Shown: piece by piece, positions 27,115 to 47,549 of the stretch
Layout of the letters: each line of letters opens with the position of its first letter
How positions within the stretch are numbered: the stretch's first letter is position 1
Assembly (NCBI GenBank): GCA_030390025.1
Contig: CM059432.1
Span: forward strand, 12,152,001-12,216,000
Origin: Squalus acanthias
Taxonomy: Eukaryota
Length of the DNA stretch: 64,000 nt
Direction: 5' to 3'
The notes under the pieces: model-generated
Seen by the model: the letters and a program-made list of their open reading frames with translations, nothing else
Databases searched by the model: none
Told to the model about the DNA's origin: nothing
Program-made: the position numbers and the translations under genes

Positions 27115-27401
27115 ATGGTCATCCGGAGGCGGTCGCATTATCACCCCCACCCCCACCCCCACCGTGAGCTGCTGCTCTGCCTCTTGCTCAAGCTGCTGGC
27201 TCTGGGCTGCGCGGTGGTCCTGTTCTGCGAGCTCGGCATCTACTACGCGGTGATACTGGGATGTCACTGGCCTCCGCTGAAAGCTGCAGCCCAGCACGGC
27301 CACCAAGCGAGGTCCTCTCCTCCGGTCCTCAGGGCTTTGTTCCTGGCTGATACACATCTGCTGGGAGCCCTCAAAGGACACTGGCTCGACAAGCTGAGAA
27401 G
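27115..27401 (+). CDS. MPPE1: Metallophosphoesterase 1 (PGAP5), coding exon 1
   Basis: Kozak ACAATGG; transmembrane segment followed by [24 protein letters not shown]; donor gtgag; upstream acceptor tttag near 27019. Confidence 0.93.
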
Positions 27402-28034
27402 GTGAGCTATATACACACAAAACACACGCACACACACACACACAAATCAATGTCTATATTCATTTTTGCTGAAGAACTGGGCTGGCGGAGCAGCCAAAGT
27501 TGGGATCGTGGCTTTGCATTCCTTAAGTTTCCTTTGCTTATGATCAAGAATTCCGCTGGTCAGTATGGATCTGGTTTTTAAATTTTCTGGGCAAACTTAT
27601 CTCAACAACAACAACAAGAACTTGCATTTCTATAGCGCCTTTAACGTAGTAAAACGTTCCCAAGGCTGCTGCACGGGAGTGTTATAAGACAAAAAAAATT
27701 GACACAGAGCCACATAAGGATCTCGGCAGTTTTTGAAATACATTCTGTGTGGGGTTTTTTTTTTAACGCGACCAAATGCCAGCGGAAACAACTGCAACAG
27801 GGACAAATATTGCACAATTAAGTATGGAAATGAGGAAAAAAGGCTAGGAGTCCCAGACAGATTGAGCACAGACTGAGATGTGTTTGCTGTAACTAAGGAT
27901 ATGTCCGACTGAGTTGCCAACACTGAGGAAATTGCTAAAACTGGTGTTTGTGATTAGTAAACAGCTTTGCAAACCGATAGATCTGCGATTATTGCTCAGA
28001 ATATATTCCCTTACAATAGGTGGGGGAAGGGGGG

Positions 28035-28738
28035 GGGGGTCGAATTTCCGCTAGTAATATCAGCGCATTCCGGGCGGAATCGGCCGCACCAGCGCAAAAG
28101 ATCGGGGAATTTTAAACGTAAGCGAGTTTCGGCCGAAACCACTTGTGTTTTCCGTGATATTTTTTTTTACTCTAGTTTAAGATTAAATTCGCTGCTCACA
28201 AATCTGGCCAGGCCGACATTGCGGGTTTCCGCCGACTGCGCTGGTTCGGGAAGGCTCTTCAAATTGCTCTCATCTTCAGAGGCGCGCAGGCGCTAGTCGG
28301 CACTTTTAAAAAAGTTTTTTCGTAACGAAAAAATATTTAATTTACTAAGAAACCAACGAGTGTACACCAAGGAAGTTAGTAAATGGCGCATTATAGTTTT
28401 TGAAAGTGATTTTAACTCGGGTTACTCCCAGATGAAGGACTGGACGTGAGCATTTCCATACTTCAGAGTGCTTATTTTTTGTGATAAATCCACTTTCAGC
28501 TGTATTAGTAAAAGTGGACCAGGTTACCACTCTTAAACACGTCAATGAATGCTTTTTAATGGAAAAAAACAATTAGGTTCTATTACGCTGCCCGATTGCG
28601 CTGGTTCATGGAAGATTTTACGTTTGTGTTTATGCAAATGATTTTTATTGGAACTTGAACTGTAACCTAACCAGCGCAATTTCTAGCAGAATTTGGACGC
28701 AATTTCCAGATTGCACCCAGAGCGAAAACTCGACCCCC
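28035..28738. mobile_element. Non-autonomous DNA transposon (MITE)
   Basis: Terminal inverted repeats GGGGTCGAATTT...AAACTCGACCCC. Confidence 0.6.
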
Positions 28739-28929
28739 CGTATGTTTGAAAACCAAGACAAGTGATTATATTTCCTCATGAGCGATGGATGGCAAGTCCG
28801 TGTCAACAAGGGTTGACTAATAAGAGATGTGGGCATGGATTAATTATTTAGAATATCAACTGATTTACTTTGTGGTGCACCAAGAAATTTTGTAGACATA
28901 ACCTTCAGGAAATTAAGCAAATGTGAGTC

Positions 28930-31826
28930 AAGGCCATAGTGAGAGCCGGTAGTGCAGAGGACTGTATAGAGCGGAGGACTGTATAGAGCGGAGGACTATA
29001 GAGCGGAGGACTGTATAGAGCGGAGGACTGAATAGAGCGGAGGACTGTATAGAGCGGAGGACTGTATAGAGCGGAGGACTATAGAGCGGAGGACTGTACA
29101 GAGCGGAGGACTGTATAGAGCGGAGGACTATAGAGCGGAGGACTGTATAGAGCGGAGGACTATAGAGCGGAGGACTGTATAGAGCGGAGGACTGTATAGA
29201 GCGGAGGACTATATAGAGCGGAGGACTATAGAGCGGAGGACTGTATAGAGCGGAGGACTATAGAGCGGAGGACTGTATTGAGCGGAGGACTGTATAGAGC
29301 GGAGGACTTCATAGAGCGGAGGACTGCATAGAGCAGAGGACTATAGAGCGGAGGACTGTATAGAGCGGAGGACTGCATAGAGCGGAGGACTGTATAGAGC
29401 GGAGGACTGCATTGAGCGGAGGACTGTATAGAGCGGAGGACTGCATAGAGCAGAGGACTATAGAGCGGAGGACTGTATAGAGCGGAGGACTGCATAGAGC
29501 GGAGGACTGTATAGAGCGGAGGACTGCATTGAGCGGAGGACTGTATAGAGCGGAGGACTGTACAGAGCGGAGGACTGTACAGAGCGGAGGACTGCATAGA
29601 GCAGAGGACTGTATAGAGCGGAGGACTGCATAGAGCGGAGGACTGTACAGAGCGGAGGACTGTACAGAGCGGTGGACTGTACAGAGCGGAGGACTGTACA
29701 GAGCGGAGGACTGTACAGAGCGGAGGACTGTACAGAGCGGAGGACTGTATAGAGCGGAGGACTGCATAGAGCGGAGGACTGTACAGAGCGGAGGACTGTA
29801 TAGAGCGGAGGACTATAGAGCGGAGGACTGTACAGAGCGGAGGACTGTACAGAGCGGAGGACTATAGAGCGGAGGACTGTATAGAGCGGAGGACTGTATA
29901 GAGCGGAGGACTGTGTAGAGCGGAGGACTGTATAGAGCGGAGGACTATAGAGCGGAGGACTGTATAGAGCGGAGGACTATAGAGCGGAGGACTGTATAGA
30001 GCGGAGGACTGTATAGAGCGGAGGACTGTGTAGAGCGGAGGACTGTATAGAGCGGAGGACTATAGAGCGGAGGACTATAGAGCGGAGGACTATAGAGCGG
30101 AGGACTGTACAGAGCGGAGGACTGTATAGAGCGGAGGACTGTATAGAGCGGAGGACTGTATAGAGCGGAGGACTGTATAGAGCGGAGGACTGTATAGAGC
30201 GGAGGACTGTACAGAGCGGAGGACTGTATAGAGCGGAGGACTATAGAGCGGAGGACTGTATAGAGCGGAGGACTGTACAGAGCGGAGGACTGTACAGAGC
30301 GGAGGACTGTATAGAGCGGAGGACTGTACAGAGCGGAGGACTGTATAGAGCGGAGGACTATAGAGCGGAGGACTGTACAGAGCGGAGGACTGTACAGAGC
30401 GGAGGACTGTACAGAGCGGAGGACTATAGAGCGGAGGACTGTATAGAGCGGAGGACTGTGTAGAGCGGAGGACTGTACAGAGCGGAGGACTGTATAGAGC
30501 GGAGGACTATAGAGCGGAGGACTGTACAGAGCGGAGGACTGTACAGAGCGGAGGACTGTATAGAGCGGAGGACTATAGAGCGGAGGACTGTACAGAGCGG
30601 AGGACTGTACAGAGCGGAGGACTGTACAGAGCGGAGGACTGTATAGAGCGGAGGACTATAGAGCGGAGGACTGTATAGAGCGGAGGACTGTGTAGAGCGG
30701 AGGACTATAGAGCGGAGGACTGTACAGAGCGGAGGACTGTACAGAGCGGAGGACTGTATAGAGCGGAGGACTATAGAGCGGAGGACTGTATAGAGCGGAG
30801 GACTGTATAGAGCGGAGGACTATAGAGCGGAGGACTGTGTAGAGCGGAGGACTGTGTAGAGCAGAGGACTGTACAGAGTGGAGGACTGTATAGAGCGGAG
30901 GACTGCATAGAGCGGAGGACTGTACAGAGCGGAGGACTGTATAGAGCGGAGGACTGCATAGAGCGGAGGACTATAGAGCGGAGGACTGTATAGAGCGGAG
31001 GACTGTATAGAGCGGAGGACTATAGAGCGGAGGACTATAGAGCGGAGGACTGTACAGAGCGGAGGACTATAGAGCGGAGGACTGTACAGAGCGGAGGACT
31101 GTATAGAGCGGAGGACTGCATAGAGCGGAGGACTGTATAGAGCGGAGGACTGTATAGAGCGGAGGACTGTATAGAGCGGAGGACTGTATAGAGCGGAGGA
31201 CTGTACAGAGCGGAGGACTGCATAGAGCGGAGGACTGTACAGAGCGGAGGACTGTATAGAGCGGAGGACTGCATAGAGCGGAGGACTATAGAGCGGAGGA
31301 CTGTATAGAGCGGAGGACTGTATAGAGCGGAGGACTATAGAGCGGAGGACTATAGAGCGGAGGACTGTACAGAGCGGAGGACTGTATAGAGCGGAGGACT
31401 GCATAGAGCGGAGGACTGTATAGAGCGGAGGACTGTATAGAGCGGAGGACTGTATAGAGCGGAGGACTGTATAGAGCGGAGGACTGCATAGAGCGGAGGA
31501 CTGCATAGAGCGGAGGACTGCGTAGAGCGGAGGACTGTATAGAGCGGAGGACTATAGAGCGGAGGACTGCATAGAGCGGAGGACTGTGTAGAGCGGAGGA
31601 CTGTGTAGAGCGGAGGACTGTATAGAGCGGAGGACTGTACAGAGCGGAGGACTGTATAGAGCGGAGGACTGTATAGAGCGGAGGACTGTATAGAGCGGAG
31701 GACTATAGAGCGGAGGACTGTATAGAGCGGAGGACTATAGAGCGGAGGACTGTATAAAGCGGAGGACTGTTGTGGAAAGCAAAGCAAATCATCCTTAGGT
31801 CACTGGTTCGATTCCCGCTCGAAGAG
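28930..31826 (+). pseudogene. tRNA-Tyr(GTA) pseudogene, intron-containing, split by an internal minisatellite
   Basis: Degenerate 5' half ATAGtgagAGCcGGTAGtGCaGAGGACTGTA (~28936-28966); intron-like 31773-31790; 3' half ATCCTTAGGTCACTGGTTCGATTCCCGCTCGAAGAG (31791-31826). Matches recalled vertebrate tRNA-Tyr. Confidence 0.9.
28950..31770 (+). repeat. Minisatellite of 17-bp TAGAGCGGAGGACTGTA and 15-bp TAGAGCGGAGGACTA units, roughly 170 copies (estimated from length)
   Basis: Directly visible tandem array with interspersed variants (GCA, GTG, GTAC). Confidence 0.98.
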
Positions 31827-31841
31827 GCGGATGTGAAAGCC

Positions 31842-31914
31842 GGACCAGTGGCACGATGGATAATGCACCTGACTACGGAGCAGAAGTTTCTAGATTCGAC
31901 TCCTGGCTGGCTCG
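31842..31914 (+). pseudogene. tRNA-Arg(ACG) pseudogene
   Basis: 73-nt GGACCAGTGGCACGATGGATAATGCACCTGACTACGGAGCAGAAGTTTCTAGATTCGACTCCTGGCTGGCTCG is colinear with recalled vertebrate tRNA-Arg-ACG; stem mismatches and a mutated B box are present. Confidence 0.88.
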
Positions 31915-31920
31915 CAAACG

Positions 31921-32085
31921 GGAGCGAGCCCTCGGCTTAGTGGTGGCCTTCTCGCCTCTGAGGCAAAAGGTGCAGCATTTGAACCCCGCTCCAGCCAGTC
32001 CCGGCGGGTGGAAACCAGAGCTCCAATGTTGAATTCTGGGTTGGCATCCAACGGGACACTCGCGTCCGGTTGGTGTGGGTCTCCT
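31921..32085 (+). mobile_element. tRNA-like SINE head/body; related copy at ~47176-47300
   Basis: GGAGCGAGCC.TGGCTTAGTGGT...TTGAATTCTGG.TTG.CATCCA.CGGGA.ACTCGCGTCCGGT is shared by both loci. Confidence 0.65.
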
Positions 32086-34317: not shown

Positions 34318-34426
34318 GGAATGGCAAATGGAACAGGCCTTTCAGACTGCTTTGTGGTTCTTTGAACCGGATGCCGTGTTCATTCTCGGTGACCTGTTTG
34401 ATGAGGGGAAGTGGAGTTCCCCAGAG
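34318..34426 (+). CDS. MPPE1: MPPE1 coding exon 2
   Basis: (R)[36 protein letters not shown] with the GDxxD motif; ag/gt boundaries and consistent phases. Confidence 0.95.
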
Positions 34427-37020: not shown

Positions 37021-37632
37021 AGTGGGATCAGGCTGTGTAGGGTGGGATCAGGCTGTGTAGGGTGGGATCACGTACTCTAGGGTGGGATCACGCTGTGTAG
37101 GGTGGGATCACGCTGTGTAGGGTGGGATCACGTACTCTAGGGTGGGATCAGGCTGTGTAGGGTGGGATCAAGCTGTGTAGGGTGGGATCACGCTGTGTAG
37201 GGTGGGATCACGCTGTGTAGGGTGGGATCAAGCTGTGTAGGGTGGGATCACGCTGTGTAGGGTGGGATCACGCTGTGTAGGGTGGGATCACGCTGTGTAG
37301 GGTGGGATCATGCTGTGTAGGGTGGGATCATGCTGTGTAGGGTGGGATCACGCTGTGTAGGGTGGGATCACGTACTCTAGGGTGGGATCAGGCTGTGTAG
37401 GGTGGGATCAAGCTGTGTAGGGTGGGATCACGCTGTGTAGGGTGGGATCACGCTGTGTAGGGTGGGATCACGCTGTGTAGGGTGGGATCACGCTGTGTAG
37501 GGTGGGATCACGCTGTGTAGGGTGGGATCACGCTGTGTAGGGTGGGATCACGCTGTGTAGGGTGGGATCACGCTGTGTAGGGTGGGATCACGCTGTGTAG
37601 GGTGGGATCATGCTGTGTAGGGTGGGATCATA
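37021..37632 (+). repeat. 20-bp minisatellite (GGTGGGATCACGCTGTGTAG)n, about 30 copies
   Basis: Directly visible tandem array. Confidence 0.98.
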
Positions 37633-46991: not shown

Positions 46992-47549
46992 GTAAGTGAA
47001 CTCTAATTATTATTATCTGCTGTAAGAGTGTTGCTTGATTCATTTACGAGTTTAAAGAGCAGCTGGTATGCTATAGGGACGCTGGGGGGGGGGGGTGTGT
47101 GTGGGGGGGAGGGAATAGTTCCTTAATTTGACTTCCTATGCTTCGAGTCATGGTGGTTTAGCAAGAACAATATTGGAGCGAGCCTTTGGCTTAGTGGTAG
47201 CATTCCCACTCCAGACAGTCCCGGAGAACTGGAGTTCCGGCTTTGAATTCTGGATTGACATCCAGCGGGATACTCGCGTCCGGTGGGTGTGGGTGGATCA
47301 CTCCCCCGCTCCCCCCACTCCCATTGTATGGGTTGTGGAAACCCATAAAACCCTCCCACCATATAGGACCAATTACCCTACCGGCAATGTTCCCTTTAAT
47401 TTTTTTTTGGGTGCGTGGCCCCTTTAAGGGGCCTGCGCGGCCCATTCAAAATAGCGCGCATGCGCGGTTTTTTCTATTTAAAAGCCGGTGGGCCGGCTGA
47501 GCGGGAGCAGCAGAGCAGCTTAAAGGGAGCATTGCCTACCGGCTGGTAT

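Follow-up and report, generated by a model that had tools for sequence, protein, structure and literature searches.

Minisatellites that arose within Alu, B1 or LTR copies are well established (PMC3389668, PMC9659126; here and below, each cited source is represented by those parts of its text that were available), and the two standard models of minisatellite birth account for only 6% of element-derived human repeats (PMC3389668). SINE-derived satellites of squamates and satellites related to tRNA in amphibians have been described (PolIII/TAN, OAX, Rana/polIII and Hy/polIII; PMC10702118), and pieces of tRNA, processed or not, are known to be retroposed, also in the form of tRNA/LINE chimeras (PMC5322556; bioRxiv 10.1101/2025.02.02.635956). 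Our search of the non-subscription literature returned no minisatellite born inside a nuclear tRNA copy.

Here we describe a 17-nt minisatellite within a 64,000-nt stretch of DNA (the window) that is part of contig C8 of a 3.7-Gb assembly. We favor, with moderate confidence, the reading that it is a single-locus minisatellite in a 5′-truncated, intron-bearing tRNA-Tyr copy, which was likely written by the reverse transcriptase (RT) of a retroelement and likely never was a working gene.

The array and its tRNA-Tyr surroundings

The original prediction described a 2.8-kb minisatellite at this locus, a description with which the sequence itself, TRF and decomposition into units all agree. On the window, TRF reported a tandem repeat at 28957-31770 with a period of 17, 169.5 copies, 91% matches and a score of 4606, while cutting at a fixed word yielded 169 head-to-tail units (135 of 17 nt and 34 of 15 nt), well within the 10-100 nt that define minisatellite units. 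Sixteen unit variants were distinguished, the three commonest of which have 67, 34 and 34 copies. The unit had been proposed to run from the end of the D-loop through the GTA anticodon, and it is indeed identical to nt 20-36 of the genome's intron-bearing tRNA-Tyr genes. The features of the locus, in window positions, are the following:

27115-27401, + strand: upstream coding exon of the host gene (95-aa open frame, GT donor at 27402)
28939-28949, + strand: left copy of an 11-nt near-direct repeat, a candidate target duplication, overlapping Tyr nt 14-19
28944-28966, + strand: head, decayed tRNA-Tyr nt 14-36 with the first degenerate unit (20/23 identical to Tyr genes; start of the profile match)
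28957-31770, + strand: minisatellite, 169 units of 17 or 15 nt, unit equal to tRNA-Tyr nt 20-36 (TRF, decomposition)
31755-31772, + strand: last, degenerate unit (nt 20-37), running into the intron (two differences from Tyr genes)
31773-31790, + strand: tRNA-Tyr intron remnant, 18 nt (best match 17/18)
31791-31824, + strand: tRNA-Tyr 3′ exon, nt 38-71 (31/34 identical; last two tRNA bases differ)
31825-31843, + strand: 17-nt spacer without T-run plus the first two Arg bases, holding the right 11-nt copy (31833-31843)
31842-31914, + strand: decayed tRNA-Arg(ACG) copy (Rfam RF00005, 29.3 bits, E 0.0047)
31920-32080, + strand: SINE-like dispersed repeat of ~160 nt, beginning 5 nt after the Arg copy
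34318-34426, + strand: downstream coding exon, in phase with the upstream one (AG/GT ends; weak Metallophos match)

The likely parents of this copy are abundant, as an intron-bearing tRNA-Tyr pattern has 102 exact matches in the genome, at least 100 of them with listed positions. Most fall in tandem arrays of a 1253-bp Tyr/Ala unit on C8 (37.41-37.44 Mb), C3821 and C613, next to single copies on C1, C8 (78 Mb), C9 and C26. Large tRNA tandem arrays as a class were seen on C8 at 36.0 Mb and at 37.41-37.48 Mb and on C3821, C613, C50, C462 and C463, with units of either 1253 bp (Tyr and Ala) or ~1235 bp (Arg(ACG) and Ala(CGC)); C613 carries both, with a switch between them.

The 18-nt spacer that follows the array matches the intron of the array-family Tyr genes at 15-17 of its 18 bases, which none of 2000 shuffles reached, the 17/18 match being to a variant found at the edge of the C8 tRNA array and at C26. 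The intron of the C6 Tyr gene matches at 15/18 bases (2/2000 shuffles), and three other Tyr introns match no better than shuffles. When the array was collapsed in a script, as the original prediction had suggested, a profile of eight Tyr genes aligned over model positions 14-95 (E 2.5e-19), whereas ARAGORN called no Tyr gene on the window or, even at threshold 80, on the collapsed locus (two forms). Taken together, the matches of unit, intron, 3′ exon and profile demonstrate, at the level of sequence comparison, that the array surroundings derive from tRNA-Tyr. Specifically, the collinear homology includes the intron, as in a tRNA-Tyr-derived pseudogene, and falls short of the full cloverleaf, acceptor stem and box A that a functional tRNA-Tyr gene has. 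Of the proposed order of 5′ half, intron and 3′ half around the array, the intron and 3′ exon are in place and the 5′ half only in part: nt 1-13 are unrecognisable, four bases of the tRNA 5′ end (ATAG) matching at the locus.

Within the array, variation is concentrated in a 5-nt junction that contains 10 of the 15 variant events (binomial p 0.003), and the remaining 12-nt core is nearly invariant. The junction is palindromic in 71/102 non-main units. Neighbouring units in runs of the GTAC variant pair into 8-bp hairpins (z -6.2 and -6.8) and main-type runs do not fold in this way (z +1.0 and +1.7), although shuffles control poorly for repeats. The junctions at both edges are of the main 17-nt type, and the edge units differ from Tyr genes at 3/23 and 2/18 positions, a decay similar to that of the tRNA remnants, suggesting that the seed is probably old. 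CpG loss, in contrast, affects 5/169 array units, while in the 3′ exon and Arg copy 4/9 sites are affected; a block of 10 units also recurs within the array (reached by 5/1000 shuffles). Together, these observations indicate that the inner units were turned over later. The window holds a second minisatellite at 37022-37630, with a strongly G-skewed 20-nt unit, 30.5 copies and 93% matches.

The array lies inside a 6.9-kb intron; the coding exons on either side of it are in phase and on the same strand. The downstream exon matches Pfam Metallophos at E 0.028, which is below cut-off; a Metallophos search of the genome gave 16 matches, none of them in the window, and comparison of the host-gene exons with Atlas and solved structures returned nothing useful. 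The host gene may be MPPE1-like, although none of these comparisons confirmed the name MPPE1 given in the original prediction. Downstream of the array lie the Arg copy and the SINE, which the original prediction had not mentioned and which share one strand with the Tyr remnant. The Arg(ACG) copy is 64/73 identical to an intact gene, with 3/6 CpG sites decayed, and neither tRNA is followed by a T-run or terminator. The SINE-like repeat has 39 other copies at 78-83% identity (40 of 792 candidates scored), and its tRNA-like head suggests the class SINE. Genome-wide, a Tyr-to-Arg(ACG) pair at 5-35 nt spacing matched once, at the window locus. A composite Tyr-Arg-SINE family was ruled out by this single occurrence and by the 39 other scored SINE copies, which never extend into Arg. 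Two further repeats were seen in the window: a high-copy dispersed repeat at 28469-28737, 200 nt upstream of the head (3538 candidates, 81-86% identity), and an untyped tRNA-like ARAGORN call at 47223-47316 that is probably a SINE head.

The spacer between the Tyr remnant and the Arg copy only loosely resembles a Tyr trailer, and among 30 of 192 Arg loci no leader closely resembled it. It does hold one of two 11-nt copies (28939-28949 and 31833-31843) that are 10/11 identical and bracket the Tyr remnant. This repeat was found post hoc, and its score was reached by 19/8706 control windows and by 28/20000 simulated decayed 5′ halves, corresponding to a p of about 0.002 before correction.

Occurrence of the array in the assembly and in sequencing runs

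The junction pattern matched 65 times in the genome, always at the array locus, and a pattern allowing any 1-8-nt junction gave 156 matches genome-wide (at least 100 of them with listed positions), the same number as a count within the window alone (exact patterns, one assembly). Growth of the array in place, as originally proposed, was supported by both counts, which put it nowhere else in the assembly, and the proposed search for other expanded tRNA-Tyr loci placed every tandem junction at the window locus (exact patterns). A mobile or multi-locus satellite was ruled out on the same ground, since 156/156 tandem junctions lie at the array locus (again for exact patterns in one assembly).

The array was also examined in two sequencing runs of organism A (X1 and X5, two samples from two studies), of which X1 is possibly the source of the assembly and X5 was read to 55%. 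Both runs yielded a contig that starts in the left flank, crosses the head and ends at 28986, the start of the first repeated 31-mer, and the 15-nt and GTAC variants are present in the reads. At window position 28898, the X1 and X5 contigs both read C where the assembly reads A. Outside organism A, organism B gave one contig with two full units and organism C gave 10 contigs that include the 15-nt and GTAC variants, the flank being covered in neither. The array is likely older than these lineages, with its position in B and C unproven and mislabelling possible.

These data bear on whether the array is real and how long it is. Array contigs total ~105x (X1) and ~36x (X5) the flank depth, and single-contig word counts over flank amount to ~0.2 (X1) and ~0.6 (X5) of the expectation from the assembly. 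Contig depths differ between the two runs and from the assembly, a possible sign of allelic length variation. Depth is a poor copy measure; accordingly, tens of units are supported by the contigs and the assembled figure of 169 stands without confirmation. The shortfall in word counts, together with the fact that no record spans the array, might suggest an assembly artefact, but a wholly false array is extremely improbable given the flank-to-head contigs in two samples, the summed array contig depths, the presence of both unit variants in the reads and the non-random order of the 16 variants. That the array is real and its length was inflated in the assembly, or is allele-specific, is a considerably less remote alternative, which the same shortfall makes a possible minority reading.

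Origin, growth and function of the array

The locus had been interpreted as a genomic, intron-retaining tRNA gene, which became doubtful on comparison with other tRNA-Tyr sequences in the genome. Among the matches listed, nine dispersed Tyr matches besides the window were examined (2, 27 and 10 further matches not being included). Those on C1, C6, C8 and C9 are intact or near-intact Tyr genes with terminators, and the match on C3 was rejected as a Tyr piece, as it has no Tyr homology. The near-intact, intron-bearing gene at C6:14548000-14548150 has a second tRNA-like sequence, presumably Leu-like, within ~25 nt on the same strand. In four of the five dispersed non-gene matches examined, a Tyr piece lies immediately 5′ of repeat DNA and shares its strand.

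One of these, at C26:7240242-7240358, spans 117 nt at 94% identity from an 8-nt leader through the intron and trailer to the T-run. The piece is fused to the 3′ end of a young LINE-like element that has copies at 97-98% and whose longer copies carry a 607-aa frame matching zf-RVT (E 2e-5 to 4e-5, below cut-off); the short C26 frame received no name from Pfam or Atlas. Because this unspliced copy is bounded like a primary transcript, the intron in a tRNA pseudogene is no proof of DNA origin, a caution that may apply to tRNA pseudogenes generally. Copy and element lie inside an unrelated minisatellite of ~44-nt units, so that the flanking repeat there does not prove a target duplication. The other three pieces are 5′-truncated and lie directly ahead of SINE-like or LINE-like repeats: the C10 piece is spliced and begins at nt 27, and the C7 and C13 pieces begin at nt 38 (C13 being weak, E 1e-4). 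No target duplication was found around these three pieces or around the SINE in the window. tRNA-Tyr carries m1G37, and the 5′ ends of the C7, C10 and C13 pieces possibly record tRNA modification sites. For tRNA-Tyr, PMC7704012 reports RT stops at nt 27 in both yeast and fly, and at acp3U20 in fly.

The Tyr pieces 5′ of repeats, these RT stops and the published retroposition of tRNA together suggest that the window copy was templated by RNA. Its homology is moreover confined to the transcript, as the locus has no similarity to the flanks of the parent Tyr arrays beyond the tRNA itself. It departs from strict tailless retropseudogenes, which are 3′-truncated by at least 10 nt and near-complete at the 5′ end, in being 5′-truncated and nearly complete at the 3′ end. 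Simulated decay at 12% divergence left nt 1-13 this poorly retained in 144/20000 cases, which favors a retrocopy. One point against it is that at 20% divergence the loss arose in 1014/20000 cases, so that plain decay or a small deletion could also have removed these bases. Decay of a resident or DNA-copied tRNA-Tyr gene (a stray Tyr-Arg pair, for instance), with loss of the first 13 bases and internal expansion, would account for the intron and for the four matching 5′-end bases; Tyr/Ala and Arg arrays do lie on the same chromosome as the locus, and the C6 gene with its close neighbour illustrates that close pairs exist. We nevertheless consider such an origin rather unlikely, since the genome has no other intact Tyr-to-Arg(ACG) pair within 5-35 nt, homology to array flanks and a T-run after either tRNA are both lacking, the copy is truncated at nt 14, and intron-bearing, RNA-bounded copies occur elsewhere in the genome. 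Under the retrocopy reading, the template would have been an unspliced pre-tRNA-Tyr whose intron belongs to the family found throughout the genome's tRNA arrays. Its reverse transcript would have landed either at the 5′ edge of the tRNA-Arg copy, duplicating a short target there, or in the final jump of a SINE-Arg-Tyr chimera.

Expansion had been attributed to slippage between two GTAG words 15 nt apart, which predicts a 15-nt unit with a GTA junction; this junction was seen in 0/156 cases. Instead, the main unit is a blunt duplication of nt 20-36, and the founding junction has no microhomology. A textbook microhomology was thus available at the locus, yet it does not match the unit. The slippage idea can be retained for the duplication step if a 15-nt GTAG seed later gained 2 nt to give a 17-mer that replaced the first unit type. 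The two GTAG words are present in Tyr genes, a single step separates the predicted unit from each of the main 17-mer, the 15-mer and the GTGTA variant, and short flanking repeats are a published route to minisatellites (the Haber and Louis model, as given in the available part of PMC3389668). However, unit length should then equal the distance between the flanking repeats (15 nt apart, against a main unit of 17), both old edge junctions are of the 17-nt type, and two events plus complete turnover are needed where a blunt 17-nt duplication needs one. With the predicted junction type missing throughout, we regard this route as unlikely.

Quite unlikely, if slightly more so, is that the first duplication took place during reverse transcription itself, with the RT reading an unspliced pre-tRNA-Tyr as far as nt 20, jumping to a tRNA 5′ half and recopying nt 36-20. 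Such a 5′ half would end at the anticodon, and the jump would land on its free 3′ end. The unit does span exactly nt 20 to the last base of the anticodon with a blunt junction, and other Tyr copies in the genome begin at nt 27 and 38; nt 20 is moreover the acp3U of fly tRNA-Tyr, an RT block (PMC7704012, text available in part). Against this, the intron position in Tyr genes puts the splicing cut after nt 37 and not 36, and in the accessible text of PMC8594491 the R2 RT jumps only from the template 5′ end and not from a mid-template pause. If such a jump did occur, the sites of tRNA processing and modification would have set a minisatellite's unit.

In the growth path that we prefer, a single duplication of nt 20-36, not aided by microhomology, would have occurred at insertion or soon afterwards, a process suggested by the observed junction. 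Slippage and unequal exchange would then have expanded and reshuffled the inner units, and edge units and tRNA remnants would have decayed. Hairpins between palindromic junction variants may have aided the expansion, which is a guess.

The array is likely neutral DNA, and no function was indicated. A functional reason for its persistence, for example that it multiplies a polymerase III factor site or gives rise to tRNA-like small RNA, might be read into the nearly invariant core with its junction-biased variants and into the presence of the array under two other organism labels. Such a reading is very improbable. Box A (nt 8-19) and box B are the established tRNA promoter positions, and the unit (nt 20-36) leaves out both; neither a D stem nor an anticodon stem can form within it, CpG decay is seen in the flanks, and the junction skew is explained by local mutability.

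Comparison with described tandem repeats

Minisatellite starts are poorly explained, and here the sequence that preceded the repeats is known base for base from ~100 living genes, making the locus a test case for minisatellite birth. As the same unit variants apparently occur in related species, the birth can be dated and the first step tested. The reach of the finding is modest, this being one probably neutral locus.

In E. coli, the distal 178-bp repeats of tyrT are likewise arranged in tandem and take in part of a tRNA-Tyr gene. Unlike the window array, they are bacterial, have a long unit in about three copies, and lie outside an intact, working gene.

With regard to retroposed tRNA, tailless retropseudogenes and tRNA/LINE-1 chimeras are LINE-copied tRNA pieces without an A tail and with short target duplications; the window copy resembles them in its probable retroposition, the lack of an A tail and a candidate target duplication. 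As described in the available text of PMC5322556, however, tailless copies are 3′-truncated and come from therian mammals, whereas the window copy is 5′-truncated and unspliced. Primate tRNA/LINE-1 chimeras (bioRxiv 10.1101/2025.02.02.635956, available part) are mostly antisense halves, in contrast to the window copy, which shares its strand with Arg and SINE. Squamate SINE-derived and tRNA-related amphibian satellites are, like this array, tandem repeats of polymerase III-derived sequence, but those described in the accessible part of PMC10702118 have units of ~70-360 nt and often many loci, as opposed to 17 nt from one tRNA without promoter boxes.

The closest parallels are element-born minisatellites, such as Alu-derived human minisatellites, the mouse B1 VNTR family, and Ms6-hm and Hm-2 in MaLR LTRs, in which an internal segment expanded locally in the same way and the parent copy is still readable on both sides (PMC3389668, PMC9659126, as far as their available text goes). 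They differ from the window array in their parent, which here is a copy of a cellular pre-tRNA and not a SINE or LTR, and in the state of their ancestor, which here survives unchanged in ~100 genes next to a single locus of ~169 units.
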